Source: an uncultured Gemmatimonadales bacterium
GTDB lineage: Bacteria > Gemmatimonadota > Gemmatimonadetes > Gemmatimonadales > GWC2-71-9
Assembly: GCA_963789925.1 (NCBI GenBank)
Contig: CAWBMQ010000003.1
Coordinates: 39,320 to 103,319, forward strand
Length of the DNA stretch: 64,000 bases
Direction: 5' to 3'
Part shown: in pieces, positions 31,170 to 59,055 of the stretch
Position numbering within the stretch: position 1 is the stretch's first letter
How the letters are laid out: each line of letters begins with the position of its first letter
Notes under the pieces: model-generated
Database searches by the model: none
What the model was told of the DNA's origin: nothing
What the model saw: only the letters and a program-made list of their open reading frames with translations
Translations under genes and position numbers: made by a program

Positions 31170-33569
31170 CTACAGCGGCTCGATAAACATCGCCGCATAG
31201 TCCCGGTTCGCGTTCGTCACCAGCTTCAGGTGCACCATCCCCGTGCCGGCCTCATAGTACCAGGCCGCACCAGTTGCATTGTCCACCTCCGACACGCTGC
31301 CTGCCTGCACCAGCGGTGACCCAGAGTTGTAGTCGCGTATCACCCGGATGTTGCCCGTCGGGTAGGGCACTGTGATCCGCGCCCACTCACCCACCTGCGT
31401 GCGGTTGAGGAAGAAGCGCGGCTTGGGCGGCACTGCGCCGCCCCACGCCACCGTATAGCTCCGTCCCGGCACCGCCGTCGTGGTACCGGTCGTCAGCGTG
31501 CTCGGCACGCCCACCAGCGTCAGTGCGGCACCGTCGTCACGCGTCACGGTAAAGGGTCCTGCCGCCTCGGTGCCGTTGTTGTTGACCCGCAGGTTCACCC
31601 GCCGGCTGGTGCACACCCACGCGTTCCACGCCACGCGCTGCGTACAGGTGCCATCGAGCATGAACGGCACGTTCGCCACGACGAAGGCTCCCGCCGCGCC
31701 CGAGACCGAGCCGGTCGAGTCAAAGAATGCCGCTGCCTTGTCGCCATCGCGATCGGCATGCGGGTCCTCGAAGTACACCTCATTCGAGTTGATGAACGTG
31801 AGGTCGCGCGCAAAGTTGCCGGTGCTGATCGGGAATGAGTTGTTCCGGTTCTGGCCCAGGGCGCTCGACGGGATCGTTCCCAGCTTGGTGAAGTTGATGA
31901 ACTTCACGTTGTCGGCACCCACCCGACCGTCGTAGAACTCGTAACCGCGGTAGAAACCCAGCCCCGTACCCACGTTCTCACTCTCGCCGATGAAAGTGGA
32001 GTTCTGCACGAACGTCTCGTTTGCCGCGAAGGTGGCGCCGATGCCGTTGTCGGCGAGCACCGCGTTGGTGATGCGCTGGTTGCTGCCCCGGAGCCAGACA
32101 CCCCGACCCTGATTCTTCCACGCCCGCAACCCGGTGAAGTCGGCAATCACCGGTGGCGATTCGGCCGCCGGATCCTGCCGAGGCGAATAGTTCGTCACTT
32201 CCGTCGTGCCGTCCATCGTCGGGCCGTCGTCCACGTTGAGCCCCACCGACCGGTTCGAGTGCGCCACGTTGTCCCGGAACTCCCGGAGCGGCGTGCGCCG
32301 CGGCAGATCGGGTGCTCCAACCGAGAGACCGGTGGGTGATGCCGGGAACGCGCACCAGAAGCCGACGCCACGCGAGCCGGCCGCGACGTTCCCGCGATAG
32401 GTGTTGTCCGGGTTCGTGATCCAGTAGCTCGCCGGACGCGTGTCCGACGGCAGTACCGCCTCCCCGGAAGCCGGTGCACGCGCCGTCATGGCCAGGTTGT
32501 TGGTGAAGGTATTGCCCGACTCCGCGCCGTCCTCCAGGAAGAACCCATGGCCCAGGTGATCGTGGCATACGTTGCCGTCGGCGACCGCGTTGTCGGTGCC
32601 GTGTACCGTCAGGCAGCGATTGAAGCTCTTCCATACGGAGTTGTTGCGGAAATACTGTCCGTCCACCGCGCCCGCGAGGTGCCAGTGCATCGGATAGCGC
32701 GCCAGGCGCGACTTCTGGCCCATGCGCAGGAACGTGACGCCCTCCACGTGGGCCGTGGCGCCCTGCTCCACCTTCACGTGACCGCCGATTCCGGTCGCCA
32801 GTGATGCGCTGTCACCCTGGATCGTCACCACCCGTGTCAGCAGACCCACCTCGCCCCGTTCATCCAGTTGCACCCCGCCTACGGTCTGCATGACGCCCCA
32901 GTGTGCGTAGCGCAGCGGCGTGTCGATGCTCACCGACGTGCCGCTGATGGCGGTGATGGTGGCCTCCTCCGCCTGAAAGGGATCGAAGTCGGTCGAGGCC
33001 AGGACGATCCGGTCACCCACACGCCAGTTGGGCTGCTGCAACAGCGTGATCTGCGTCGCGCCCACCGCCGCCGTCGCCGCGAGCTTGGTCCACGCGAGCC
33101 TGGATTCGCCGTGCAGCTCCAGGCGCCCGCCCGGCAACACCCCGATCATCTTGTCACCGAAATTCAGGATCTCGCCGCTGCCGTCGCCAGTCAGCGTGAT
33201 CGTCGCCTTCCGCGAACGCTTCGCCAGCTCGGTGCCCACCTGGAGCGTCCCCGATACGACGACGTATCGTGTGGTGAGCGCGACGTCCATCGTCGGCGAG
33301 AAGGTGAGGGAACCATTGATCGTCAGGCCGCCGAGCGCCGGTGTGTCCATGTCGAGGAGCACGTCCTTGCCCGCCGGAATGACCACATCGGCACCCGCCA
33401 CGGGCACGGTGCCGCCCCACGTTGCCGGGTCCGACCATTTCGCATTGGCTGCGGGCGGCGGCGGATTGCCGTTGTCGCCGGGGTCCGGTTCCGACATGGA
33501 CGTACAGGCAGCAAGCGAAAGAAGCATGACGCCGGGAACTGCAGCGTAGAATGCACGGAACGATTGCAT
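31170..33569 (-). CDS. Secreted G8-domain / right-handed beta-helix protein (CEMIP/TMEM2-like)
   Basis: Lipobox LSLAAC. G8-type opening KWSDPATWGGTVPVAGADVVIPAGKDVLLD..LGGLTINGSLTF. Core text RLARYPMHWHLAGAVDGQYFRNNSVWKSFNRCLTVHGT.N..V..NV..D..GHGFFLEDG.E..N....NL. PbH1-like repeats follow. Confidence 0.8.
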   Translation of the reverse strand: MQSFRAFYAAVPGVMLLSLAACTSMSEPDPGDNGNPPPPAANAKWSDPATWGGTVPVAGADVVIPAGKDVLLDMDTPALGGLTINGSLTFSPTMDVALTTRYVVVSGTLQVGTELAKRSRKATITLTGDGSGEILNFGDKMIGVLPGGRLELHGESRLAWTKLAATAAVGATQITLLQQPNWRVGDRIVLASTDFDPFQAEEATITAISGTSVSIDTPLRYAHWGVMQTVGGVQLDERGEVGLLTRVVTIQGDSASLATGIGGHVKVEQGATAHVEGVTFLRMGQKSRLARYPMHWHLAGAVDGQYFRNNSVWKSFNRCLTVHGTDNAVADGNVCHDHLGHGFFLEDGAESGNTFTNNLAMTARAPASGEAVLPSDTRPASYWITNPDNTYRGNVAAGSRGVGFWCAFPASPTGLSVGAPDLPRRTPLREFRDNVAHSNRSVGLNVDDGPTMDGTTEVTNYSPRQDPAAESPPVIADFTGLRAWKNQGRGVWLRGSNQRITNAVLADNGIGATFAANETFVQNSTFIGESENVGTGLGFYRGYEFYDGRVGADNVKFINFTKLGTIPSSALGQNRNNSFPISTGNFARDLTFINSNEVYFEDPHADRDGDKAAAFFDSTGSVSGAAGAFVVANVPFMLDGTCTQRVAWNAWVCTSRRVNLRVNNNGTEAAGPFTVTRDDGAALTLVGVPSTLTTGTTTAVPGRSYTVAWGGAVPPKPRFFLNRTQVGEWARITVPYPTGNIRVIRDYNSGSPLVQAGSVSEVDNATGAAWYYEAGTGMVHLKLVTNANRDYAAMFIEPL

Positions 33570-33736
33570 ACTGACCTCGAGATGCGGGGTCGGTCTGTCC
33601 AAGACGCTGTGGCTGTATGACTTGGGAAACGCGACTGATCAGGAGGGCAAGATCGATGCTATCGCAGGCAGACTGCGGGATGATGCGAATGGTTTCAACA
33701 CTTTGACATACTGCAGATTTCGGCAGTGACTCGCGG

Positions 33737-34231
33737 TCAGTAGAGCCGCAGCCCCGTCGGTTGAACCTGTACTCCCTTGACCCATGCTCCCACCGGCACC
33801 GGCACCACGTTGTCGTTTCTCTTGGTGGCCTTCCGCACCTGGGGACCCCAGATCGATTCCGCGAGCGGCACGCCCGAGACCTCGATCGTACGGATTCGCC
33901 AACCCACGATGCCGGGCTGGACGAGGCTGACCGGCCCCACACCGGTCATCCTGGCGAACCCGAGCGCTGCCATCATCTCCATCCCCGGCACAGCCGACAA
34001 TCGCACATCGGCATCCATGCGAAGCTCGGTGCCCTGCGCGGAGAAGGCGACGTTCTTGACGTTCTCCTTCTGCGCCGGCGGCATCAGGGCGGCAATGACG
34101 GTGTTCACGCTGTCGTACGTGAGCGTCGTGGGCTTGCTGGGCGCGGTCTGCGCCGCCAGTGGCGACGCGAACACGGTCAATGCCGCGGCAAGCATGGTGA
34201 AGCCCGCCCTGCGCAACGTGACGTCCTTCAT
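33737..34231 (-). CDS. Secreted hypothetical protein (164 aa), last gene of the PQQ-dehydrogenase operon
   Basis: Signal peptide MKDVTLRRAGFTMLAAALTVFASPLAAQ. The ATG overlaps the upstream stop (ATGA at 34228-34231). Confidence 0.5.
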   Translation of the reverse strand: MKDVTLRRAGFTMLAAALTVFASPLAAQTAPSKPTTLTYDSVNTVIAALMPPAQKENVKNVAFSAQGTELRMDADVRLSAVPGMEMMAALGFARMTGVGPVSLVQPGIVGWRIRTIEVSGVPLAESIWGPQVRKATKRNDNVVPVPVGAWVKGVQVQPTGLRLY

Positions 34232-34620
34232 CGCTTCAACTCCATGTTCACGTCCAGCATCGCTCGCCAGAGCGGGTGTGGACGATGGTTTTCCCAGTAG
34301 TAGTAGTCTCCCAGCCGGGAGACATACAATGAAGGGGCGAATGGAAACACCAGCCCCTTCTCACGGCGCAACCTGGTCAGCTCCCTGGCAAACAGCAGCG
34401 TGTCGCCCGTCGCCGAATCGGGCAGCTGCCCCACGGCGCGGCCAGCGAGAAATCCCTGGGTCCACGCCACCCGCTGCGGCGCTTCCATCGTACCCCAGTC
34501 CTGGCCATCGAGATCGAACCACGACCGGTCCTGCCGTGCCCCCATGAATCCAGCCGTGAGCAGGGATCCGGCCATCACGCCCAGCGATGCAGCCACCCAG
34601 CCGCGTCGCACAAACGTCAC
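34228..34620 (-). CDS. Hypothetical membrane-anchored protein (about 130 aa)
   Basis: The GTG at 34620 overlaps the TGA of the cupredoxin gene (GTGA). N-terminal hydrophobic segment WVAASLGVMAGSLLTAGFMG. The ORF track shows a longer 34228-34719 version. Confidence 0.5.
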   Translation of the reverse strand: MTFVRRGWVAASLGVMAGSLLTAGFMGARQDRSWFDLDGQDWGTMEAPQRVAWTQGFLAGRAVGQLPDSATGDTLLFARELTRLRREKGLVFPFAPSLYVSRLGDYYYWENHRPHPLWRAMLDVNMELKR

Positions 34621-35159
34621 TTGAGCGTCGAGGTGAGCACTATCGCCGGCTCCTTCGCGGCCGGGTCGACCTTCATGTCGATGTACATGCCCGCCGGGGC
34701 ATGACCGGGTACGCCGCACATGATTCGGAAGGTTGCGTTCGGGGCGGCGGTGAAGCGCATGGTGTCCTTGCCACCCTGCGGCAGGCCCTCGAGCAGGTTG
34801 ATGGTGTATGCCCGAGGAATCGCGACCTGACCACCCATGTTCGGGATCGGTCCGGTGCCCGAGGCCACCTCGGCGCTGTGCGGCACGCCATCCTCGTTGA
34901 CGAACGGCATCACCACCGTTGCGCCGGCCGGTACCACCAGGGTCAGCTTGCCCTCAGTGAAGCCGTTGAAATTGAACGGACTCGCCGACGCGGGAACGCC
35001 GGCGATGAGCTGGAACGTCACCGTCTTGGTATCGGCGTTCCACTTGAGCCACGCTGGATCCGGAGTCTTCGTCGTCGCCTGTCCCTGGGAGTGGACCATG
35101 CCAGGGACAGTGACGAACACGAGAGCAGCAGCGGCGAGCGAGCGGTAAGTCATTGCCAA
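34617..35159 (-). CDS. Sulfocyanin-like blue (type 1) copper protein, secreted
   Basis: Signal peptide. Upstream His in NEDGVPHSAEV. C-terminal ligand loop IMCGVPGHAPAGMYI (Cys-x4-His-x4-Met), as in sulfocyanin-type cupredoxins. Confidence 0.75.
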   Translation of the reverse strand: MAMTYRSLAAAALVFVTVPGMVHSQGQATTKTPDPAWLKWNADTKTVTFQLIAGVPASASPFNFNGFTEGKLTLVVPAGATVVMPFVNEDGVPHSAEVASGTGPIPNMGGQVAIPRAYTINLLEGLPQGGKDTMRFTAAPNATFRIMCGVPGHAPAGMYIDMKVDPAAKEPAIVLTSTLK

Positions 35160-35242
35160 TCCTCATCATGTCGGTAAAACTCGTGAGCGGGAGCGCCTCG
35201 AGAGGCACTCCCGCCCACCAGCAGAGCAAGCGACCTGCCGAT

Positions 35243-35266
35243 ATTTACTTCTTCATTTACTTCTTC
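35243..35266. repeat. Perfect 12-nt tandem duplication spanning the PQQ-dehydrogenase stop codon
   Basis: The plus strand reads ATTTACTTCTTC twice (35243-35254 and 35255-35266). On the gene strand this is ...CCG AAG AAG TAA ATG AAG AAG TAA. Confidence 0.95.
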
Positions 35267-36915
35267 GGAAGCCCGAAGAACACGATCGTGTTGCCGAGCG
35301 GGTAATTGAGCTGATAGTTGCCGCCGCAGGCGACGCCGATCATCTGCTCACCCTTGTGCTTGAAGCTCATCGGGGCACTGTTGCAGCCGGCGCCCGCATT
35401 GAACGTCCAGAGCAGGTTGCCCGTCTTCGAGTCATAGGCGTTGAAGTTGCCGTTGCCCTCGCCGGTGAACGTCAGGCCACCAGCGGTCGAGAGCGCGCCA
35501 CCCATCATCGGCTGCGGCACCTTCTTCTGCCACGCAATCTTGCCGGTGGCGAGGTTCACGGCCGAGAAGAGGCCGTACTGCTCCTCGGTCGGGATCGCCA
35601 CGAAGGCGGAACCCAGCCAGAGGCGACCCTTCTCCCACGGCGCGTAGTTCGTGCGGTACCACATCGGCTGGTGCAGTGCGGCGACGTAGGCATAGCCCAG
35701 CGTCGGGTCGATCGAGATCGGCGACCACTCCGAGCCACCGTTGGCGCCGGGAAGCATCCGCGTGCCCTCGCCACCAGTCGGCAGCGCGAACATGTTCTCC
35801 TGCGGAACGAATGCATCCGACCGGCGCACCAGCTTGCCCGTCGCGGCATCGAGGACATAGACCCAGCCCGTCTTGCCGGCGTGGACAACGACCTTCTTGC
35901 CACCGACCGTCGCCACGACCGGCGGCGACACGGCATCGAGGTCCCACACGTCGTGCGGAACCGTCTGGTAGTACCACTTCGTCTTGCCGGTGGTGGCATC
36001 GATCGCCACGATGGCATCGGTGTAGAGGTTGTCGCCCGGGCGGATGCCGCCATCGAGGTCCGGGGACGGGTTGCCCACCGCGACGTAGATGGTCTTGCTC
36101 TCCGGGTCATACGCCGGCGTCATCCAGACACCGCCGCCGCCACGCGTCCAGGCATCGGCATTCTTCGCGCTGTCGCCCTTTTCCTTGGCGACGTCGCGAT
36201 GCAGGTCGGCGCCATCCGGCGTCTTGGCCGCCCAGGTGCCCCACCAGCCGTTCGGCGCCTTGTCGTCGAACGTCGGGTCGCCCTTCGGGGCCGGGATCGA
36301 GTACCAGCGCCACACCTGCTTGCCGGTCACGGCATCATACGCCGTCACATGGCCTCGGATGCCGTACTCGCCACCCGACACGCCGACGATGACGTTGTTG
36401 TCGATCACCAGCGGCGCGTGCGTGATGCTGTAGCCGTACGTCGGATCGGCCACCTCGATATCCCATACGACTTCGCCCGTCGCGCCATTCAAGGCGACCA
36501 GACGGGCGTCGAGGGTTCCCATGTACACGTGCGGGCCGTGCACACCGACGCCGCGATTGTTCGGGCCGCAGCAGTAGATCGTGGTGCCGAGCTTGTGCTC
36601 GTAGCGCCAGAGCTGCTTGCCGGTGGCGAGGTCGTACGCGATGGCCGTGTTGAACGGCGTCGTAACGAAGGCCTTGCCGCCCATGATGACCGGCGTGTTC
36701 TCGAACGAACCGAGCTTCGCGATGCCGGTCTGCAGCATGCCGCGCGGCACCAGTTTGGCGACATTGCTGGCATTGATTTCATTCAGACCGGAGTAACGCT
36801 GGTTCCACTGGTCTCCGCCATACGTGGTCCAGTCGTCTCCCGTCGGCTTCTGCGCGGCCGCGGTACCCGTAATCAGGCACAGCGCCGGCAACCAGCTGAA
36901 TCGACGAAAATTCAT
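35257..36915 (-). CDS. PQQ-dependent dehydrogenase, methanol/ethanol family (periplasmic quinoprotein)
   Basis: Signal peptide MNFRRFSWLPALCLITGTAAAQ. Opening DWTTYGGDQWNQRYSGLNEINASNVAKL. Vicinal disulfide YCCGPNNRG. GEYGIRGHVTAYD. PGDNLYTDAIVAIDATTGKTKWYYQTVPHDVWDLDA. The ORF opens at 37008; the ATG at 36915 gives the signal peptide. Confidence 0.9.
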   Translation of the reverse strand: MNFRRFSWLPALCLITGTAAAQKPTGDDWTTYGGDQWNQRYSGLNEINASNVAKLVPRGMLQTGIAKLGSFENTPVIMGGKAFVTTPFNTAIAYDLATGKQLWRYEHKLGTTIYCCGPNNRGVGVHGPHVYMGTLDARLVALNGATGEVVWDIEVADPTYGYSITHAPLVIDNNVIVGVSGGEYGIRGHVTAYDAVTGKQVWRWYSIPAPKGDPTFDDKAPNGWWGTWAAKTPDGADLHRDVAKEKGDSAKNADAWTRGGGGVWMTPAYDPESKTIYVAVGNPSPDLDGGIRPGDNLYTDAIVAIDATTGKTKWYYQTVPHDVWDLDAVSPPVVATVGGKKVVVHAGKTGWVYVLDAATGKLVRRSDAFVPQENMFALPTGGEGTRMLPGANGGSEWSPISIDPTLGYAYVAALHQPMWYRTNYAPWEKGRLWLGSAFVAIPTEEQYGLFSAVNLATGKIAWQKKVPQPMMGGALSTAGGLTFTGEGNGNFNAYDSKTGNLLWTFNAGAGCNSAPMSFKHKGEQMIGVACGGNYQLNYPLGNTIVFFGLPKK

Positions 36916-37092
36916 CTGTGGTGCACTCCCGTGATGTGGTGATGTTCGCCTGCGTAAGGATCGAACCCACGCCCGGCCCCGCTCCCCAACGGTTCCGGTT
37001 CCCTGCATTTTTTCTGATGATTGTGGTATTCAGGTGTACTTAAGATCCGGCTAGAACGCCCCGTGTCAAGATGCAGCATACTCCGGAGTCAC

Positions 37093-37626
37093 ATGCCTAA
37101 GGTTTTGTATCGCATACGATTCGGTCTCCCCCTGGTCGCCCTCATGGCCCTCGCCGTGTCTTCCCTCGGGGCCCAGGATGCCGGACTTCCGGCCTGGATC
37201 CATCCCGACCCCGCCGGAAAGTCAGTGTTGCTGGATCTCACGGTCACTCGCCCGGCCGGGGCCCCGAGCGCCGTGATCAGCGGGGAGCATGATGGGAGTA
37301 TCCAGGTCATCGTGCCGCGCGGCTGGACCATCAAGTGGCATTGGGTCAACCAGGACTCGACTGCCAGCCATAGCCTGGTGGTGGTTGCCGAGCGCGAGAA
37401 GCTGCCCCAGCAGGGAGGACAGGCGGTCTTCACCAACGCGATGACCCGGGCGGTGTTGCCCGGGCTGGCGGTGGGACGCACCGATGACACGTCCTTCGAG
37501 GCCGAGGACGGCGGATGGTTCTGGGTGATCTGCGGCGTGCCCGGGCATGCCATCGCGGGCGAGTGGATCAGCCTGAGGGTCGATCCGGCCGCAACAGAGG
37601 TCAGTGCGAAAAAGAAGGGCGCCTAG
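37093..37626 (+). CDS. Sulfocyanin-like cupredoxin paralog with Glu in place of the axial Met
   Basis: Signal peptide MPKVLYRIRFGLPLVALMALAVSSLGAQ. Upstream His in STASHSLVV. Ligand loop VICGVPGHAIAGEWI. Divergent from the PQQ dehydrogenase gene across a 177-nt spacer. Confidence 0.7.
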   Translation: MPKVLYRIRFGLPLVALMALAVSSLGAQDAGLPAWIHPDPAGKSVLLDLTVTRPAGAPSAVISGEHDGSIQVIVPRGWTIKWHWVNQDSTASHSLVVVAEREKLPQQGGQAVFTNAMTRAVLPGLAVGRTDDTSFEAEDGGWFWVICGVPGHAIAGEWISLRVDPAATEVSAKKKGA

Positions 37627-50062: not shown

Positions 50063-50323
50063 CGCACGGCCCCCGTGACGTCGTTGCCCGTCCCTCCCGC
50101 CCTGCCGAGTGTGCCTGCCTGCCGTTTCCATGCCGTGCCGTGATGCAGAAACCCGCAGCAACCCCCTCTTTCAGCGTCCGCGAACCGCCATTTCTTCCGA
50201 CTGTAAAAAACGTCGCCGCTGTCGTCATCGAGGCAGTGCAAGAGGCACGTGCATTGCGACATAGATAGACATCCGCCGTTCTATCCGCCGCAGAGCAGGG
50301 CGTTCACGTCGAAGGAGCTCGTC

Positions 50324-52663
50324 ATGACTTTCCTCAAGGGCCTCAAGCGCCAGGAAACCGGTCCGACCCCCGGTGAGATCCGCACGGTGCTTTCAGCCAT
50401 CCAGCGTGAGCGCAGCAGCCTGGAATCGCTGGTCGTTCGCGCCGAGGCGGCTGCGGGCGAGCTGCAGGCGGCCCAGTCGGGTGACAGCGCTGCCATGGCT
50501 GCCGTCCTGGGCGAGCGGGTCGCCACCCTGGAACAGCAGCTCCGCGCCATCGACGCGCTCTCGCCCACCCTCGAGCGGGCCATGATGCGGCTCACCGCCT
50601 TCGATGAGTCGTGGACCAGTGCCGAGGCGAAGATCGCCGCCATCGAGGAGCGGACCAGCACCGCCACGGGCATCGTGGGCGCAATGAAGGAGCAGAGCGA
50701 ACGCCTGCCGGAGGTGCAGCACCAGATCGGCGTCCTCCGCGCGCTCGCCGAGCAGACCACCCAGAAGCTTGCCGCCCTGGAACAGCAGCGTGACCTGATC
50801 GACCGCACCAGCGGCCAGGTGACCCACCTCTTCGGCATGCTGCCGCAGCTCGAGTCCGGCTTCCGCCGCCAGGACGAGCTGCTCCGCCTCCTCCGCGAGC
50901 TCGAGGTCCGCGTCAATGCCGCGGACGAGACCCAGCGACGGGTTTCGCACGAGACCGAGTCCCTCGGCTCGCGGCAGACAGGCCTCAACGCCGAGGAGAA
51001 CACTCTTCGCGAGGCACTGAACGCTCTGCGCGCCGACATGGAGCGGAGTGTGTCGCTGGTGGAGCAGGAGCGCCGCGGCATGGACTCCCTTGCCGAGCGC
51101 ATCGCCGAGATCCGCGCCGAAGTGCGGGAGTACGAATCGAAGCTCCAGGTGCTGAACGAATCGGGCCGTCACATCGTCGGCCTCCACGGCCAGACCCAGC
51201 ATCTCTACGCCCAGGTCTCCGGGCTCACCACGGAGTTCAAGGCGCTCGGGGAGAAGGCGGAGCGCGCGCGAATCCTCCAGGCGGAGGCCGCCCGGCTCGA
51301 GCAGTTGCTCGCCGGCCTCGGCCTCCGGGTCCAGAAGATCGAGGACGCCCGCCCCGCGGTTGAGACCGCCATGCGCGATCTCAGCGTTCTCCGTGGATCG
51401 GAGGACGCCGTGCGTGATGCCCTGGAGGAGGTCGGCCGCGCGCAGCAGGAACTGGCGCGCCTGCGCGAGGCCCAGGGTGACACCGAGAATTGGCTGGCGC
51501 GGAGCGACGAGTCCACCCGGACTCTCAAGGGCCAGGTGACCGAACTGCTCGCCCTCGAGCCGCTGGTGGAGCGCGTGCGCAAGGATGTCGATCGCGTCAG
51601 CACGTCGCTCGACCTGGCCGACACTCGCTGCGCCCAGCTCGACGACCTCAGCCAGCGCGTCGCCAACATGCACGCGCTCGGCTATGAACTGAACGAGCGC
51701 ACCGCGGCGCTCATCGCGCGGATGGATGGGGCCGACCAGCGCTTCAGCAGCATCGCGAGCCGGGCTGATGAGGCCGACAGTGTCGCCGACCGGTTTGGCG
51801 AGGTGGCAAACTGGATCGGCGACGCCGACCGGCGCATGTCATCGCTGTCCGAGGCGCTGGATGGCCTGAACGGCAAGGCGCGCATGGCCGATGAGCTCAA
51901 GGAGCGGCTGCGCCACCTGGAAGACGAGCTCTCCCGCCGTGAGGGCGGACTCGAGCGCGCCCTGGAGCAGCTTGGTCGCGCTGCCGAACTCCGCCGCGAG
52001 GGCGCGGACAGCGCCGAGCGACTGGAGGAAGTGGTGCGGACGCTCACCGCGTCGCTCGCAACGGCGGAAGAGCGGTCGCGCGAGCTGGACCGGAGCACGA
52101 CCGACCTGGGCGAGCGCAGCATCGCGCTCAACCTGGTACAGGACCAGTTGCGCCAGTTCGAGGAGCACTTGTCACGCTGGCAGGTCGCCGAGCGCGAGAT
52201 GAGCCGCGCCACCGAGGCGGTGCTGAGCCGGCAGGAAGCGGTGGACACGCTGCAGAAGGAAGTGCGGCAGGTGCACGCGGAAGCGTCCCAGACGCTCGCA
52301 GCGGCGCGGTCGATCAGCGAAGCGCGGCGTGAGGTGGAGGAAACCACCCGGGTCGTGCTCGAGACCCAGGCCCAGCTGCGCCAGGCCACTGGCGCCGTGG
52401 AAGCGCTCGAACTCCGTCGCCAGCAGGTGGAGCGGGCCGAAGCCCGTCTGTCACGCGCCGAGGCGATGACCCTGGATCTTCGTGCGAGCCTCGAATCACT
52501 TCATGGTCAGCGGGCCGTGCTCGACCAGGCGCTGGAAAAGGCCGGCAGCCTCTCGCTGCACATGAAGCAGGCCGAGTCGGTCATCGAGCAGCTGCGGGAG
52601 GAGCGGACGCTGGCGGATCGCGTCCGCGCGGCAGTGGTGGCGCTGCGGCAGGAGGACGAGTAG
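50324..52663 (+). CDS. 779-aa all-helical coiled-coil protein of unknown function
   Basis: GAAGGAG precedes the ATG at 50324. Uninterrupted E/R/A/L/Q heptad-like text runs to the end. No TM helix, Walker motif or CxxC was seen. Confidence 0.7.
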   Translation: MTFLKGLKRQETGPTPGEIRTVLSAIQRERSSLESLVVRAEAAAGELQAAQSGDSAAMAAVLGERVATLEQQLRAIDALSPTLERAMMRLTAFDESWTSAEAKIAAIEERTSTATGIVGAMKEQSERLPEVQHQIGVLRALAEQTTQKLAALEQQRDLIDRTSGQVTHLFGMLPQLESGFRRQDELLRLLRELEVRVNAADETQRRVSHETESLGSRQTGLNAEENTLREALNALRADMERSVSLVEQERRGMDSLAERIAEIRAEVREYESKLQVLNESGRHIVGLHGQTQHLYAQVSGLTTEFKALGEKAERARILQAEAARLEQLLAGLGLRVQKIEDARPAVETAMRDLSVLRGSEDAVRDALEEVGRAQQELARLREAQGDTENWLARSDESTRTLKGQVTELLALEPLVERVRKDVDRVSTSLDLADTRCAQLDDLSQRVANMHALGYELNERTAALIARMDGADQRFSSIASRADEADSVADRFGEVANWIGDADRRMSSLSEALDGLNGKARMADELKERLRHLEDELSRREGGLERALEQLGRAAELRREGADSAERLEEVVRTLTASLATAEERSRELDRSTTDLGERSIALNLVQDQLRQFEEHLSRWQVAEREMSRATEAVLSRQEAVDTLQKEVRQVHAEASQTLAAARSISEARREVEETTRVVLETQAQLRQATGAVEALELRRQQVERAEARLSRAEAMTLDLRASLESLHGQRAVLDQALEKAGSLSLHMKQAESVIEQLREERTLADRVRAAVVALRQEDE

Positions 52664-52671
52664 CAGGCTCG

Positions 52672-55266
52672 CTAGCCTTGTAGCCGCGAGATCGCGGCTA
52701 CAAGGTCGGGCACTTCAGTCAGCACCGGCAGCATCGGGTCGTGCTTCAGCTTCCCAAGCCGGGCCTCCATGTTCGAGATCGTAAACTCCCGAGGGTCCAG
52801 CGTCGGCGTCACCTCGCTCCACTCGAGTGGCGCCGACACCGGAGCGCCCGGCAACGGGCGCACACTGTAGGGCGCCACGATCGTCTTGCCTCGCCCGTTC
52901 TGCAGGTAGTCCACATACACCTTCCCCGACCGACGCTCCACCTGTCGCATGATCGTGGAGATATCGGGCAGCTCCGCCACGACGCAGGCGCGCCAGGAGC
53001 TCCCCGAATGACCGGCACTGGTCATAGGTGAGCTGCTGTCCCAGCGGGATCATCACGTGCAGGCCGCTCGACCCCGTGGTCTTGATGTAGTGCGGCAGGC
53101 CGACGTCACCACAGCGTGCGTGGATCAAGTGCGCCACTTTCACCACGTCGGTGAACGGAGCCTCCTTCGGGTCCAGGTCGAGGATGCACCAGTCGGGTCT
53201 CTCCAGCGACGCCACCCGGCTGCCCCACATGTGCAGGGGGATCGACCCCAGGTTCACGACGTACAGCAGCGACTCCATATCCTCGCACACGATGTAGTCG
53301 ATCTCGCGATGCGGGTCCTCGCTCCATTGCCTCACCGTGCGCACCCATTCCGGCACGAAGTCGGGCGCATCCTTCTGGAAGAACGACTTGCCCTCGATAC
53401 CGTCGGGGTAGCGGGTAAGGACAAGTGGTCGATCGCGCAGATAGGGAAGAAGCCAGGGGGCGACCATTCTGTAATAGTCGATAAGTTGGCCCTTGGTGTA
53501 TCCATCCTTCGGCCAGTAGACCTTCTTGAGGTTGGAGAACGGAACTTCCCGCTTCAGTTCCTCCCCACCCTCCCCGGTCTTCCCGCCATTCGTGCCCGGC
53601 GCGCCATTCCCGGCCTCCCCGTCTTCAGCGGCCCTCCGGACACACTCCTCCGGTTTCTTGTCGTCCCGGAATCGCAGGAACACCGGATGACGCAACACCC
53701 CTTCGTTGGTCCACTCGGTGAACCGGACCTCGGCCACGAGATTCGGTTCCACCCACGTCGTGGACTCGAAATCGGCGACCGTCATCCCGTAGTCGCCCGC
53801 GGTGGGCGCCTTCGCCCTGGCACCCTTCTTCGACGCCGCCACCGGTTCGGCCCGCGGATCGCGCGGGGGCAGGCATGGTGGCGTCTTCCGGGTCATTCCC
53901 TCCAGTTCCTTGCGGACGTCACCCAGTTGCTGGTCGTCAAAACCGCTGCCCGCGCGTCCGGCGTACACCAGCTGCTTCCCGATGAATTGTGCGAGGTGCA
54001 GTGCGCCGAAGCCGGCGCGACTGCCCCTGGGCGCGGTGAATCCCACCACCACGAACTCGTCGCTTCGCGCCGCCTTGATCTTGAGCCACACCGGTGACCG
54101 TCCCCCTTTGTAGGGGCTGTCACCCTTCTTCGCGATGATTCCCTCGAGGCCCATGCGCTCCACCTGAGAGAAGAACGCTTCGCCCTGCTTCTCGATGTGG
54201 TCGAGGTAGCGGAGCGGGCCGGCCGGCGGCACCACTCGTGCGAGGACGGCCTTTCGCTCCACCAGCGGCAGGGTTCGCAGGTCGTAGCCCTCGAGGGAGG
54301 GGAGGTCGAAGGCATAGAGCGTGGCCGGCGATTCGACCGCGGCGCGGCGAATGTCGAGCGGTCGCCGCAGTCGCGCACGTTGCTGAAGGCGCTGGAAGTT
54401 CGGGTGTCCCTTGTCGTCGAGGGTCACCACTTCCCCATCAATGATCACGTTGGTCATGGGCAGGGCGCGCAGCGACCGCACCACCTCGGGAAACGATGCG
54501 GAGAGGTCGTTCCCGTTGCGCGAAAGCAGTCTCGCCTCGGTTCCCCGCCGTTCAGCGAGCACCCGCCACCCATCGAGCTTGAGCTCGAACACCCAGCCTG
54601 CCTTGCTGAATGGCTCGTCGCCATTCTCGCACAGCATCAGCTTGATGTCGTCGCCCTTGAGGTCGGCCTTCCGCGAGCTTCTGCCGCTCGAGCTCGGCGG
54701 TCACCGACGTCACCACTTCCGCGCTGTCGCGCAGGCGCTCCACCGACAGCCCCGACAGCACCGACTCCGGCGGGAACGTGCCGCCCTTTTCGACGTATCC
54801 GTCGCGCTCCTTGATCAGGAGCCACTCCTTCTCGCCCTTCTTGAGCTTCACCAGGGTCCACATGCCCTTGAGCTTGTAGCCCTTGAGCTCGAAAAGGAGC
54901 TTCCCCTTCGCCAGTCCCTCCCGCGTGTCCCCGTGCGGGATCCACTTCCCCTTGTCCCAGACGATCATCGACCCCGCGCCGTAGTTGCCGGCGGGAATCA
55001 CTCCCTCGAAGTCGGCGTACTCGATCGGATGATCCTCGGTCTGGACGGCGAGACGCTTGTCGGCAGGATCGGGAGAGGGGCCCTTGGGGACGGCGAACGA
55101 GAGAAGGACCCCGTCGAGTTCCAGGCGGAGGTCCCAGTGAAGGTTGCGGGCCGCATGCTGGTGCACCACGAACAGCCCCGCCCAGCTCCGGGGAGACGAC
55201 TCCCGCCGGTTCCGGGGTACTATCGGCAGTCCGTTTGGCCCGGTATTTCTCTAGGTCACGAGGCAT
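52672..55266 (-). pseudogene. ligD: Multidomain NHEJ DNA ligase LigD (phosphoesterase-ligase-polymerase), at least 3 frame changes
   Basis: MPRDLEKYRAKR (ATG 55266), then the PE domain FVVHQHAARNLHWDLRLE (ORF 54552-55169). ORF 52715-54637 carries the ligase KxDG motif (FELKLDGWR) and the Prim-Pol domain (YWPKDGYTKGQLIDYY...LYVVNLGSIPLHMW). The Pol C-terminus VVAELPDISTIMRQVERRSGKVYVDYLQN is in ORF 52672-53025. Frame breaks lie near 55185, 54655 and 52990. Confidence 0.85.
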
Positions 55267-55323
55267 GCAATATTTCCCGTGTCCGCCTTGCGGCATCACC
55301 GTTCAACGGTTGGCCTGATCCCT

Positions 55324-56166
55324 ATGCCTGCACGTTCCATCGGCTCCGCCACGATTTCCTTCGGACTGGTCTCGGTCCCGGTCAGCCTGTTCTCCACCGC
55401 CGAGTCCTCCGCCAGCGTTTCATTCAACATGCTGGACAAGAAGACTGGCACCCGGCTCAAGCAGCAGTACGTCGTGCCCACCGACAGTAATCGCGTCGTC
55501 GAGAAGGACGAGATCGCCAAGGGCTACGAGTTCTCCAAGGGGCAGTATGTCGTCTTCAGCCCCGAGGAACTCAAGGCCCTCGACGAGAAGGCCACCAACT
55601 CCATTGATATCGCCGAGTTCGTGCCGCTCGACAAGATCGATCGCGTCTACCTCGACAAGGCCTACTTCCTCGGGCCGGACAAGGGCGGCGAGCGCGCGTA
55701 TCACCTGCTGGCCAAGGCACTGGTGGAGACCGGACGCGCGGCACTCGGACAATATGCTGCGCGGGGCAAGCAGAACCTGGTGCTCGTGCGGCCCACCGCG
55801 GACGGTGTGCTGGTCATGGAACAGTTGCACTACGCCGATGAGCTCAAGAAGGCGTCGGATGTGCCGATCCCGGAGACCACGGTGAAGGACACCGAGCTCA
55901 AGCTCGCCAAGCAGCTGATCGAGCAGACCGCCACCGACGAGTTCCAGCCGGAGAAGTATCACGACCAGGTTCGCGACCGGGTGCTGCAGGCCATCCAGGC
56001 CAAGGTGGACGGGCAGGAAATTACCTCGGAGCCCGAGGAAAAGGCGCCCACCAAGATCATCGACCTGATGGAAGCGTTGAAGGCGAGCCTGGCGAAGGGA
56101 GGCGGCGAGTCGGCGAAGGCCACGACCGCCAAGCCGGCAAGGAAGAAGGCGCGGAAAGCGTCGTAG
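55324..56166 (+). CDS. ku: Ku protein (bacterial NHEJ DNA-end binding)
   Basis: MPARSIGSATISFGLVSVPVSLFSA-type opening, YVVFSPEELKAL, DRVYLDKAYFLGPD, and a Lys-rich tail AKPARKKARKAS. Divergent from ligD across a 57-nt spacer. Confidence 0.9.
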   Translation: MPARSIGSATISFGLVSVPVSLFSTAESSASVSFNMLDKKTGTRLKQQYVVPTDSNRVVEKDEIAKGYEFSKGQYVVFSPEELKALDEKATNSIDIAEFVPLDKIDRVYLDKAYFLGPDKGGERAYHLLAKALVETGRAALGQYAARGKQNLVLVRPTADGVLVMEQLHYADELKKASDVPIPETTVKDTELKLAKQLIEQTATDEFQPEKYHDQVRDRVLQAIQAKVDGQEITSEPEEKAPTKIIDLMEALKASLAKGGGESAKATTAKPARKKARKAS

Positions 56167-56169
56167 CGC

Positions 56170-59055
56170 CTACAGGCCCAGTTCGTCGAGGAACTGTGCC
56201 CCGCCCGTTGGCACGCCGTGCCGTTCGCGTACGCGCGTGAGCACGAGGCGATCTTCCGCGCGCGTCATCCCCACGTAGAGCAGCCGTCGCGCCTCTTCCA
56301 TTTCGCCCTTCGGGATCTGCTTCCCCTGCCTGATCCCCGGCATCTCGGCATCCTCCACTCCCACGATGTAGACCCGCTTGAACTCGAGACCCTTCGTGGC
56401 ATGCAGCGTCAGCAGGTTGACACGATCATGATCGGTCTCGACCCCATCGGAACGTGACAGGGCCACGCGCTCGAGCAGTTCACGCAGCTGCACCTCCAGC
56501 GTCGTGCCGGTGAGGGCGTCGAGGATCCGTCCCAGCCGCTCCATCGCCGCCGGATAGCGATCGAGCGCCGTCTTCTCGGCGCGGATCTGCAGCATCTTCT
56601 CCCGCCCGCCGAGCCGCTCGATCACTTCATCGTGTGTAGGTGCCCCCGCCGCTCCGGGCCGTTCGCGCTCGACCGCGTATTCATCGAGGACATTGCTGTA
56701 GCGGCCCAGTGCCCACGCGCGGGTGAGCTTGACCAACAGGCCGGCCTCGTCAGAAAGCGTTGCCCAGTCGCCCAGTGCCAGGGCCAGACCGAGCCAGTCG
56801 AGCAGGTTGACCAGCGCCGTCTTCCGACCGCGCACGAGCTTGTCCTCCTCGAGGCGGAGGAACACCAGTGCCAGGGCACGGGCATCGTCCAGCGCGTGAT
56901 GCGCCGCGAGCAGCGGCACACCAAACGCAGCCGCCAGGTCGGACAGTCGCCGGCTTCCCGGATGAAGGTCGCGCGCCAGGGGCAGCGTGTCGTAGACCGG
57001 GATATCCATGGCACCGCCGTGCGGCGCCGCCATGCGGCGAAGGATCGGGAAGTCGAACCAGTGGCCATTGTGCGCCACCAGCAGGTCGTTCCCCACGAAC
57101 GCACGGAACGCCGGCCATACCTCCTCGAAGTACGGTGAGCCGCTCAGCGATTCCGCGGTGTAGCCGTGTACCTCCGTCGCCCTGGCCGCGACCGGTACCC
57201 GCGGCTTCACCAGCGACTGGAACTCGGCCACGATGGCGCCGTTCCGCACGCGCACGCCGGCGATCTCGACGATCTCGCACCCCTCGAGATTCTTGTCGGT
57301 CGTCTCCAGGTCGAACGCCACGAAATCACGGAATGCGTCCGGCATCTCCCGGCTGTGCGCCAGCTGCAGCGCCTTGAACGTCGTGAGCCCCGGGCCAAGG
57401 TGGCCCATCTGGTCCGGGTCCAGCACCAGGTCGCCCGATGCCACGTCGGCACCGGCGTCGAGCAGGCTCACGCTCGTCACGCCACCACCACGCAGCATGC
57501 CGGCGAGCGCGATCTCGACGCCGCCGAGCCGCTTAAGCCACACACGACGCCGACCGTGCATCGCGGTCGCGAGATCGGCGGCAAGGGCGCGTACCCCGTC
57601 ATCGGCTGCGGGATCACTCAGCTCCTCGTGACGCTCCTCGAGCAGGGTGCGGTACTCCCCAACCCGCTGGGCCAGCAGCTCGTCAACCAGCCCGTTGATG
57701 GTCGTGTGTTTCCGGCCCAGGGCGTGCAGGTTGTCGAGCGCCAGCTGGAAGCGCCGGAGTTTCTTGATCTCCGGATCCTCCTTCTGCCCGCGCCGCGCCG
57801 TCAGGCGGAGCCAATCGAGGAACTCGGCGTGGGCCGTCTCCGCCTCGGTGCGGATCCGCTGGTACAGGGTCTCCGGCAACACCACCCTGGCGAAGGATTC
57901 CTCGGGGACAGGATCGCCCGGCGCCGAGATGACCCGGAGCGCCGCCACCAGGTACTGCACCACCGGGTCGTCCTGCAGGGCACGACCCGCCGCGAGCCGG
58001 CAGGGCACGCCCGCCTGCAACAGCATTCCCTCGATGCGTGACCCCACCTCGTGCGTGCGATAGAGCACCCCGAATTCACCCCATGGCAGCATGGACTCGC
58101 CCCGGTCCCGGACGATGTCCTCCAGGATCCACGCCGACTCGGCATCGTCCTCATCGAAGGTTTTCACCTCGACGCCGTACGGCGACTCACGGGTGGCGCG
58201 CAGGGCTTTCCTGAACAAGGAGGGATTGTCGCGCAGCAGCCGTCGCGCCGTTTCGAAGATTCCCCGCGCATTGCGCCGGTTCTCCTCCAGGACGATGACC
58301 GACTTGATGTCGAAGTCTCCCGCCAATTTCTCCAGGACCCGGGGCACGGCACCGGTCCAGGAGAAGATCGATTGCTCATCATCGCCCACGGCAAAGAGGT
58401 TCCGATGGCCATCGGCGATGGCCTTGATCACCTCATACTGCACCGGATTGAGGTCCTGGCACTCATCGACGAGTACCGCATCCCACCGTCCCGCGACGGC
58501 CTCCTTCACGTCAGGGAGCTTCAGCAGCTCAGCGGCCCGCAAGACGAGGTCGTCGTAGTCGAGGAGGTTTCGCCGGGCGAGCCATGCCTTGTAGTCGGCC
58601 AGGAGTTGCACGCTGTTCGGGTGCAGTTCCGCCCCGGCCAGACGGTGTCGGCTGAAATCGTTCAGCCGCGTGGTGGCCCACTTGTACACGCCGAGTCGCC
58701 TCAGCAGCTGCACCTGGTAGCTCTCATCGGCGATCCCGAAGCCGCGAGGCACCCCGATCCGTTCACCGTGCTCCCGCAGCAGGATGACGCAGAGCGAATG
58801 AATCGTTCCGGCGGTCATGTCGCCGGCCCGATCGCCCAGGGCCTCCCTGAGCCGGCCCGAGATTTCTCCCGCTGCACGATTGGTGAAGGTGACAGCACAG
58901 ATGCGTGCTGGCGGGATCCCCTGGACATCCACGAAATGCCGGATGCGCTCGATGAGGCAGAAGGTCTTGCCCGCGCCCGGCCCGGCCAGCACGAGAACCG
59001 GCCCTGCGGGTGCATCGATGGCAGCGCGCTGGCTTGAACTGGGAGAGAAGGTCAC
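56170..59055 (-). CDS. UvrD/PcrA-family SF1 helicase with an embedded DEDDh (DnaQ-like) 3'-5' exonuclease domain
   Basis: Helicase motifs: LAGPGAGKT, VLVDECQD, FAVGDDEQSIFSWTGA, LEENRRN, and near the C-terminus TLHATKGLEF and LLYVGMTRAEDRLVL. Between them lies FVAFDLETTD ... LVAHNGHWFDFPIL ... HHALDDARAL (aa about 577-735). Confidence 0.9.
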   Translation of the reverse strand: MTFSPSSSQRAAIDAPAGPVLVLAGPGAGKTFCLIERIRHFVDVQGIPPARICAVTFTNRAAGEISGRLREALGDRAGDMTAGTIHSLCVILLREHGERIGVPRGFGIADESYQVQLLRRLGVYKWATTRLNDFSRHRLAGAELHPNSVQLLADYKAWLARRNLLDYDDLVLRAAELLKLPDVKEAVAGRWDAVLVDECQDLNPVQYEVIKAIADGHRNLFAVGDDEQSIFSWTGAVPRVLEKLAGDFDIKSVIVLEENRRNARGIFETARRLLRDNPSLFRKALRATRESPYGVEVKTFDEDDAESAWILEDIVRDRGESMLPWGEFGVLYRTHEVGSRIEGMLLQAGVPCRLAAGRALQDDPVVQYLVAALRVISAPGDPVPEESFARVVLPETLYQRIRTEAETAHAEFLDWLRLTARRGQKEDPEIKKLRRFQLALDNLHALGRKHTTINGLVDELLAQRVGEYRTLLEERHEELSDPAADDGVRALAADLATAMHGRRRVWLKRLGGVEIALAGMLRGGGVTSVSLLDAGADVASGDLVLDPDQMGHLGPGLTTFKALQLAHSREMPDAFRDFVAFDLETTDKNLEGCEIVEIAGVRVRNGAIVAEFQSLVKPRVPVAARATEVHGYTAESLSGSPYFEEVWPAFRAFVGNDLLVAHNGHWFDFPILRRMAAPHGGAMDIPVYDTLPLARDLHPGSRRLSDLAAAFGVPLLAAHHALDDARALALVFLRLEEDKLVRGRKTALVNLLDWLGLALALGDWATLSDEAGLLVKLTRAWALGRYSNVLDEYAVERERPGAAGAPTHDEVIERLGGREKMLQIRAEKTALDRYPAAMERLGRILDALTGTTLEVQLRELLERVALSRSDGVETDHDRVNLLTLHATKGLEFKRVYIVGVEDAEMPGIRQGKQIPKGEMEEARRLLYVGMTRAEDRLVLTRVRERHGVPTGGAQFLDELGL

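Follow-up and report, generated by a model that had tools for sequence, protein, structure and literature searches.

Introduction

To our knowledge, every characterised eight-bladed pyrroloquinoline quinone (PQQ) alcohol or methanol dehydrogenase delivers its electrons to haem c, be it that of cytochrome cL/XoxG, of cytochrome c550, or of a fused or associated cytochrome. Methylamine dehydrogenase, the cofactor of which is tryptophan tryptophylquinone (TTQ), reduces amicyanin directly. Type II quinohaemoprotein alcohol dehydrogenase (ADH) reduces azurin (PMC8348568). Gemmatimonadetes make c-type cytochromes, and the XoxF3 clusters found there carry both XoxG and XoxJ (PMC10875860). A combination of PQQ with a copper carrier has been raised for Thaumarchaea lacking cytochrome c, as speculation only (PMC7300363), and our literature search, the coverage of which was incomplete, found no paper that describes PQQ alcohol dehydrogenases with attached cupredoxins, whether as genes or as domains. 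Here we analyse a stretch of 64,000 nucleotides (nt) from an uncultured soil bacterium of the Gemmatimonadales (contig CAWBMQ010000003.1; hereafter the window), in which a PQQ dehydrogenase gene with a lanthanide-type signature is flanked by genes for two cupredoxins, CupD downstream and CupU divergently upstream. An original prediction, made from the letters of this stretch, had proposed that these genes form a periplasmic PQQ-to-blue-copper electron-transfer module, in which electrons would leave the enzyme via the copper protein(s) and not via haem. The comparisons presented below make such a module probable. What they support as new is a putative copper outlet, instead of a haem outlet, for a lanthanide-signature PQQ dehydrogenase, together with an unusual candidate cupredoxin family with the ligand set His-Cys-His-Glu.

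Results

Linkage of the dehydrogenase to cupredoxin genes in Gemmatimonadales

Scanning one genome for each GTDB species yielded 297 relatives, and the best 80 all belong to Gemmatimonadales, at 74-97% identity. CupU lies divergently upstream of the dehydrogenase gene in all 71 species loci for which the upstream flank spans 3 kb or more, either directly adjacent (12 loci) or with a single gene of the major facilitator superfamily (MFS) in between (59 loci). With respect to the downstream side, CupD was found in 30 of 65 loci. The small gene orfA, which follows CupD in the window, was found in 51 of the 65, including 27 without CupD, and eight loci carry neither of the two. CupU is the sole adjacent cupredoxin in the 35 loci that lack CupD. 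The expectation that the cupredoxin neighbours would be conserved was thus borne out in full for CupU and only in part for CupD.

The commonest gene order is DUF1684, a TlpA-like redoxin, CupU (on the opposite strand), MFS, dehydrogenase, an optional CupD, an optional orfA and a porin-like gene. In the lineage of the window the MFS, redoxin and DUF1684 genes are absent from the 64 kb, and an acyl-CoA dehydrogenase gene abuts CupU. Since the linkage of CupU is kept while the outer neighbours differ, the CupU-dehydrogenase pair appears to have outlived the rearrangements around it.

Cupredoxin fusions and carrier replacement outside the order

More distant relatives were collected with a HMMER search of 1.84 billion cluster representatives, which returned 1,825 proteins at E <=1e-30; the nearest representatives were 44-48% identical to the dehydrogenase. 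Among the best 150 of the 50%-cluster representatives, ten carry a C-terminal cupredoxin domain, verified with Pfam, that is fused to the dehydrogenase. Three of these domains are of the SoxE type with a C-x4-H-x4-M loop (P0286, P0287 and P0353) and are closer to CupD than to CupU, five are of the plastocyanin/azurin type (P0294, P0364, P0408, P0348 and P0393), among which four have a C-x-P-H-P-x-M loop like that of amicyanin, and two are of the Cupredoxin_1 type (P0332 and P0365). The amicyanin-like loop reads C-R/T-P-H-P-F-M in some of the fused relatives, and P0294 matches the amicyanin model TIGR02657 below its cut-off. All fused cupredoxin domains carry Met, and all ten fusion proteins have the D-x-D signature in the dehydrogenase part. 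P0294 is annotated as Chloroflexota and the cluster of P0408 includes a member of the Mycobacteriales. In a neighbour-joining tree, which is rough, carries no support values and is indicative only, the fusions were scattered over several branches, and the SoxE-fused P0286 grouped beside the Gemmatimonadales clade. No separate carrier gene lies beside the fused dehydrogenase at the P0286 locus. Many other relatives have N- or C-terminal cytochrome c domains, of which four were verified.

A homologue that is 52% identical and has the same PHDVWDLDAVSPP segment was found in two cultured Burkholderiaceae, Paraburkholderia caribensis (L085) and Caballeronia sp. SBC2 (L086). In P. caribensis it is followed, with a 4-nt overlap, by the gene for a dihaem cytochrome c of 211 amino acids (aa) and then by that of an ankyrin-repeat protein; the same two genes lie downstream of the homologue in Caballeronia. 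This dihaem cytochrome c sits in the slot that CupD holds in the window, and no homologue of it was found in the 81 Gemmatimonadales loci.

Two further features of these relatives were noted. The ankyrin-repeat protein (L085:8548-9870 and L086:8614-9859) is secreted and 62% identical between the two genera, an odd companion for a periplasmic dehydrogenase. P0288, a metagenomic protein of 1155 aa and a close relative (48% identity), carries in place of a carrier domain a polytopic membrane domain of ~640 aa, behind which the PQQ propeller is fused.

Search for cytochrome c and accessory genes

Only two CxxCH motifs were found in open frames of at least 50 aa across the 64 kb, both in frames of non-coding composition. 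Among 40 window proteins scanned with Pfam there was no cytochrome c, XoxJ/MxaJ-type binding protein, oxidase or product of a pqq gene. Genes for SoxM-type oxidase, Rieske and cytochrome b proteins were likewise absent near the module. The window likewise has no pedF/exaB-like gene. No cytochrome c gene adjoins any of the 81 Gemmatimonadales orthologues, and neither the window nor the flanks of these 81 genes encode a protein of the solute-binding-protein type. The claim that neither a cytochrome c nor a xoxJ/mxaJ-like gene is adjacent therefore stands for the window and extends to those flanks.

One candidate cytochrome was considered and rejected. An open reading frame of 390-440 aa with a CxxCH motif lies beside CupU in 52 loci, but the motif (FGTWCPTCHD) falls in an AhpC-TSA/Redoxin domain and is a thioredoxin-type WCxxC followed by His. 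All CxxCH matches in the orthologous flanks are this WCPTCH redoxin.

Family and metal site of the dehydrogenase

The dehydrogenase matched PF01011 with 277 bits (gathering cut-off 26.7). Its score of 443.4 bits against TIGR03075, the NCBIfam model of the methanol/ethanol subfamily, is under the cut-off of 480.05, which is passed by the Paraburkholderia homologue and by the fused relatives P0286 and P0294, and no narrower NCBIfam model matched. The window enzyme is thus a divergent member of the wider PQQ dehydrogenase family. The family hallmarks that had been read from the sequence (GDDWTTYGGDQWNQRYS, IYCCGPNNRG, RPGDNLYTDAIVAIDATTGKTKWYYQ and PHDVWDLDA) are all present in its reading frame. 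The protein stops after the propeller at 552 aa and has neither a C-terminal haem c domain nor a CxxCH motif. Its best solved relatives are PedH (6zcv/6zcw, 1e-79), ADH IIB (1kv9) and ExaA (1flg); structures of XoxF (6dam 234 bits, 6oc5 225) and of MxaF score somewhat lower than those of the ethanol type.

In HMMER alignments the vicinal Cys-Cys pair (IYCCGP) is in register with PedH and ADH IIB, as are the catalytic Asp and the Glu and Asn of the GGEYG and GNPSP segments, respectively; the PQQ-stacking Trp region is also kept in the alignment with PedH. The predicted metal ligands of the window enzyme are Glu, Asn and the two Asp of WDLD. The original prediction had placed the second Asp in the metal-ligand column, and the alignment agrees: it falls in the column of the WDFD of PedH (6zcw), which holds Thr in the three calcium enzymes 1kv9, 8gy2 and 1kb0 (WDFT/WDYT). 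The motif PHD[VLI]WDLD is present in 81 of 81 Gemmatimonadales orthologues. In tested XoxF, ExaF and PedH enzymes the extra Asp is an established requirement for lanthanide use, and a lanthanide ion is the most likely metal of the window enzyme, held by Glu, Asn and both Asp of WDLD, as judged from these alignments. Most of the 120 relatives in the tree also have D-x-D, whatever their context. The lanthanide signature is common in this part of the family and neither novel nor distinguishing. A 2026 preprint describes 15 clades of eight-bladed enzymes with the lanthanide motif, with occurrences in Gemmatimonadota.

Predicted copper ligands of CupD and CupU

CupD scored 71.1 bits and CupU 51.1 bits against the Pfam SoxE model (cut-off 21). 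The His and the Cys-x4-His-x4-Met of CupD align with His85/Cys138/His143/Met148 of rusticyanin, and C-x4-H-x4-M is present in 33 of 33 CupD orthologues. CupD is predicted to be exported and, with these classical ligands, to be a type-1 cupredoxin of the SoxE/rusticyanin class. Its start codon is either the TTG at 35159 or the ATG at 35153.

The predicted ligand set of CupU is His93, Cys147 and His152, with Glu157 in the axial column in place of Met. This Glu occupies the column that holds the axial Gln in mavicyanin and Met in both rusticyanin and CupD. The C-x4-H-x4-E pattern, with Glu replacing Met, was found in 71 of 75 CupU orthologues, and in an alignment of 41 diverse CupU sequences all four residues and the EREKLP loop are invariant. 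The AlphaFold model of CupU (predicted local distance difference test score, pLDDT, 79) is a cupredoxin, with rusticyanin as its best fold match. Axial-Glu azurins exist as engineered proteins, and we know of no natural type-1 cupredoxin family with a His-Cys-His-Glu set; a literature search for natural axial-Glu cupredoxins found nothing relevant, which is not proof of absence.

The description of both proteins as sulfocyanin-like stood only in part. Both match SoxE, but they are not equivalent, one having an axial Met and the other a Glu, and both score below the cut-off of the sulfocyanin equivalog TIGR03094 (168.4; CupD 65.8 and CupU 39.4 bits). The cut-off of the NCBIfam rusticyanin equivalog is likewise far above the scores of CupD and CupU. 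The term sulfocyanin-like therefore denotes the fold class only.

Variants of CupU were seen in some loci. In L011, L030, L073 and L076 its Cys is replaced by Asp or Gly, with the His-x4-Glu part kept in three of the four. In a 90%-identical relative (L006/L084:9611-9802) CupU was called as a 63-aa fragment with matches in two frames, which reflects either a frameshift error in a long-read metagenome-assembled genome or a pseudogene.

Gene layout and neighbouring genes

The contig of the window has a G+C content of 67%, and the nearest relatives of the region are uncultured Gemmatimonadales throughout. The features of the module are listed in Table 1. Its four minus-strand genes are tightly packed, in the order dehydrogenase, 97 nt, CupD, orfA and orfB, and on re-checking the sequence the gaps of 97 and 177 nt and the GTGA and ATGA overlaps proved exact. 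All five products, including CupU, have hydrophobic export-type N-termini. A promoter/terminator scan found no terminator-like site between the four co-directional genes, and the consensus scan for promoters and terminators gave nothing beyond shuffled expectation. A TTGACA box and a GTTGGGGAGCGG element in the divergent intergenic region are kept, by alignment, in the closest relatives only; being confined to five or six of these, the conservation is uninformative on regulation.

Table 1. Positions of the dehydrogenase, the two cupredoxins and associated features in the window.
Feature	Position	Strand	Remarks
PQQ dehydrogenase, 552 aa	35257-36915	minus	PF01011 E 3.8e-82; Sec signal peptide
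CupD, 180 aa, cupredoxin	34617-35159	minus	SoxE PF06525 E 9e-20
CupU, cupredoxin	37093-37626	plus, divergent from dehydrogenase	SoxE E 1.3e-13
orfA, 130 aa	34228-34620	minus	GTG start overlaps CupD stop (GTGA)
orfB, 164 aa, predicted secreted	33737-34231	minus	ATG overlaps orfA stop (ATGA)
Divergent intergenic region dehydrogenase/CupU, 177 nt	36916-37092	none	presumed to hold both promoters

The orfA product has an N-terminal hydrophobic helix followed by a small helical domain with an invariant D-Y-Y-x-W-E/D-N motif. It matched nothing in Pfam or NCBIfam, its homologues are all unnamed, only one of five AlphaFold models was confident, and no fold match was found in the PDB (best HdeA, E = 1.3). 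In view of these searches, orfA was rejected as an MxaI-like small subunit, as XoxJ and as a lanthanide binder. The orfB product had no Pfam match and is confined to the closest relatives (7 of 58 loci).

Several genes that accompany the module in other species were noted. The MFS gene between CupU and the dehydrogenase (L001:8115-9821) is present in 65 of 81 loci and missing in the window lineage (L002-L006), in which CupU abuts the dehydrogenase directly. A secreted redoxin of 390-440 aa, convergent to CupU and beside DUF1684 (L001:6252-7421), is typical of 58 of 81 loci and absent from the window. An unannotated N-terminal domain of ~230 aa precedes its C-terminal redoxin domain, which is of the TlpA/AhpC type (WCPTCH). 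TlpA-type proteins mature copper sites in other bacteria, and this redoxin may therefore service the cupredoxin. A gene for a porin-like outer-membrane beta-barrel with the C-terminus ...GLMLFY lies downstream of the module in ~50 loci (L001:13142-14102); in L001 it is split into two open reading frames, probably by a frameshift.

With respect to the remainder of the window, the gene directly downstream of orfB (31170-33602, minus strand) encodes an 810-aa lipoprotein with a G8 domain and a CEMIP-type beta-helix, of the family of the animal hyaluronan-depolymerising protein, and is kept at this position only in the closest relatives (L002-L006). An open reading frame of 804 aa at 50249-52663 (plus strand) has strong coding composition (G+C at third codon positions, GC3, 0.87), and its matches to Pfam, all below threshold, are coiled-coil-like. 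A non-homologous end-joining cluster at 52672-56166 comprises a LigD 3'-phosphoesterase domain (54552-55169, minus), Ku (55279-56166, plus) and further LigD-like open reading frames upstream. In a 961-aa UvrD-family helicase (56170-59055, minus), an inserted RNase T-type 3'-5' exonuclease domain separates the N- and C-terminal helicase domains.

Discussion

Two features of genomes are classically taken to indicate that an oxidoreductase and a carrier are donor and acceptor: the fusion of the carrier domain to the enzyme, and the exchange of one carrier gene for another at a constant place in the operon. The relatives of the window enzyme display both, and together with the persistent linkage of CupU this makes a PQQ-to-copper route the best explanation of the locus. 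The PQQ-to-blue-copper module of the original prediction thus gains support from three sides: the CupU synteny, the dehydrogenase-cupredoxin fusions, and the cytochrome c that occupies the CupD slot in Burkholderiaceae. In such a module the eight-bladed enzyme would oxidise an alcohol-type substrate in the periplasm, and the reduced PQQ would then pass its electrons, one at a time, to a type-1 copper protein in place of a c-type cytochrome. CupD would be the counterpart of the fused cupredoxin domain of relatives and of the dihaem cytochrome c of Burkholderiaceae. CupU would be the constant partner of the dehydrogenase gene in Gemmatimonadales and the sole carrier in species that lack CupD. 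The copper protein(s) would then hand the electrons to a terminal oxidase encoded elsewhere. Lanthanide use, PQQ loading, the electron transfer itself, the order of CupU and CupD, and the final acceptor are steps that we infer from these comparisons.

The couple of protein-bound PQQ/PQQH2 lies near +90 mV. Cupredoxin potentials range from roughly +150 to +680 mV (PMC6315138). Given these potentials and the precedents of amicyanin and azurin, transfer from PQQ to copper would be chemically ordinary. As to the first acceptor, the fusions favour the Met type, and the universality of CupU and the 35 CupD-less loci favour CupU itself. Judging by work on axial-ligand mutants, a carboxylate in the axial position would probably lower the potential of CupU, in agreement with an order in which CupU accepts first and passes the electrons to CupD. 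We suggest tentatively, as a possible refinement, that the axial-Glu CupU may be a low-potential dedicated first acceptor that forms with CupD a two-step haem-free chain, and that single-chain 'quino-cupro-protein' dehydrogenases may have arisen repeatedly (in Chloroflexota, Actinomycetota-like and other lineages).

A number of observations weigh against the PQQ-to-copper route. CupD is missing from 35 of the 65 loci. The synteny was measured in one order at an identity of at least 74%, so that part of it may reflect inheritance and not selection. As Gemmatimonadetes have cytochromes c, and XoxG in their XoxF3 clusters (PMC10875860), a distal cytochrome is possible. Four CupU orthologues (L011, L030, L073 and L076) have lost the Cys ligand, and L076, which also lacks CupD, is left with no intact adjacent cupredoxin. 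A carboxylate is unusual as the axial ligand of an electron-transfer copper site, so CupU could have another role. The dehydrogenase is below the TIGR03075 cut-off, and the Pfam scans found no pqq genes in the 64 kb.

One alternative is that the two cupredoxins are general respiratory or iron-oxidation carriers, like sulfocyanin and rusticyanin in acidophiles, that lie beside the dehydrogenase gene without serving the enzyme, the electrons of which would go to a cytochrome c encoded elsewhere. CupD and CupU are both of the SoxE/rusticyanin class, an iron-oxidase role has been proposed for 'sulfocyanin' genes of marine Gemmatimonadota (PMC11316326), XoxG cytochromes serve the XoxF3 systems of Gemmatimonadetes, and the synteny is drawn from a single order. 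This alternative is difficult to reconcile with CupU standing beside the dehydrogenase in 71 of 71 loci despite changing outer neighbours, with homologous dehydrogenases in other phyla being fused to cupredoxin domains, and with a cytochrome c taking the CupD slot in Burkholderiaceae. The absence of SoxM-type oxidase, Rieske or cytochrome b genes nearby, and scores far under the sulfocyanin and rusticyanin equivalog cut-offs, likewise do not fit a general carrier, and we regard this explanation as distinctly unlikely. The gene context suggests a role other than iron oxidation for at least this subset of Gemmatimonadota 'sulfocyanin' genes. Another proposal is that only the Met-type cupredoxin (CupD or the fused domain) accepts electrons, and that CupU serves the module as a copper-delivery, copper-sensing or other non-redox protein. 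The fused domains, all with Met, are nearer to CupD than to CupU, and CupU combines its unusual axial Glu with an invariant charged EREKLP loop. Its Cys has been lost in four orthologues, and in most loci its gene converges with that of a TlpA-like thiol-disulfide oxidoreductase; proteins of this class are known to mature copper sites. This proposal would leave 35 of 65 loci with CupU, a supposed non-carrier, as the only adjacent cupredoxin; moreover, His, Cys and His are invariant in the 41 diverse CupU sequences, and the axial-Gln phytocyanins, which are the closest loop match, are genuine electron carriers. We consider it unlikely.

Doubt may also be directed at the enzyme itself, in that the propeller protein might be no working lanthanide/PQQ alcohol dehydrogenase but a cofactor-less quinoprotein-like protein or a Ca2+ enzyme, with D-x-D as a mere trait of the clade. 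The secondary match to the 'acido-empty-quinoprotein' model, which goes with the score under the TIGR03075 cut-off, reaches only 330, half of that model's cut-off of 650. The near-universality of D-x-D among relatives regardless of context would suit a clade trait, but the alignment with PedH preserves the Cys-Cys pair, the PQQ-stacking Trp region and the Glu/Asn/Asp/Asp set, and the metal motif is invariant in 81 orthologues. The extra Asp is what tested enzymes require for lanthanide use. No pqq genes lie in the 64 kb, but PQQ can be imported. This last explanation is highly improbable in our judgement.

Should the PQQ-to-copper route be correct, a copper-only exit would be a new output mode for a textbook enzyme family, and lanthanide enzymology would gain a partner protein that is easily followed by spectroscopy. 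It would explain the role of many 'PQQ dehydrogenase' genes without a nearby cytochrome in abundant soil phyla, and it would call for caution in the use of SoxE or 'sulfocyanin' matches as markers of iron oxidation in Gemmatimonadota genomes (cf. PMC11316326). A natural His-Cys-His-Glu cupredoxin family would be available for testing how axial ligands tune the redox potential of copper. The fusion proteins could serve as ready-made constructs for biosensors and bio-electrocatalysis, in the role now played by quinohaemoproteins.

Comparison with known systems

PedH and ExaA, which work with cytochrome c550 (PedF/ExaB), share with the window enzyme the eight-bladed propeller, the Cys-Cys pair and the Glu/Asn/Asp ligands, to which PedH adds the extra Asp; like it, they are periplasmic and soluble and have no haem domain. 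Identity to them is about one third, the window enzyme is under the TIGR03075 cut-off, and the adjacent carriers are cupredoxins and not c550. The XoxF-XoxG-XoxJ systems, including the XoxF3 of Gemmatimonadetes and Acidobacteria, have in common with it the D-x-D signature, a periplasmic PQQ enzyme and the same phylum (PMC10875860), whereas the window enzyme has no XoxG or XoxJ and is accompanied by cupredoxins, orfA and, in most species, MFS and porin genes. The XoxF3 of Gemmatimonadetes belongs to a different clade from the window enzyme.

With respect to the carriers, CupD and CupU share the Pfam family, fold class and C-x4-H-x4-X copper loop of sulfocyanin (SoxE) and rusticyanin. They differ from these in lacking the gene context of a SoxM oxidase or of iron oxidation, and CupU has Glu where sulfocyanin and rusticyanin have Met. 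In the type II quinohaemoprotein ADHs (ADH IIB and the quinohaemoprotein ethanol dehydrogenase qhEDH) the electrons also end on a blue copper protein (PMC8348568), and, like the fusion proteins described above, these ADHs have a C-terminal carrier domain of their own. They use Ca2+ and place a haem c between PQQ and azurin, whereas the window system has no haem, and the carrier domain of the fusion proteins is itself a cupredoxin. Methylamine dehydrogenase, in the chain with amicyanin and cytochrome c551i, is likewise a periplasmic quinoprotein with a dedicated cupredoxin, encoded alongside it, to which it passes electrons directly. Its TTQ cofactor is derived from the protein and its fold is another one, so that the likeness is one of mechanism and not of descent.

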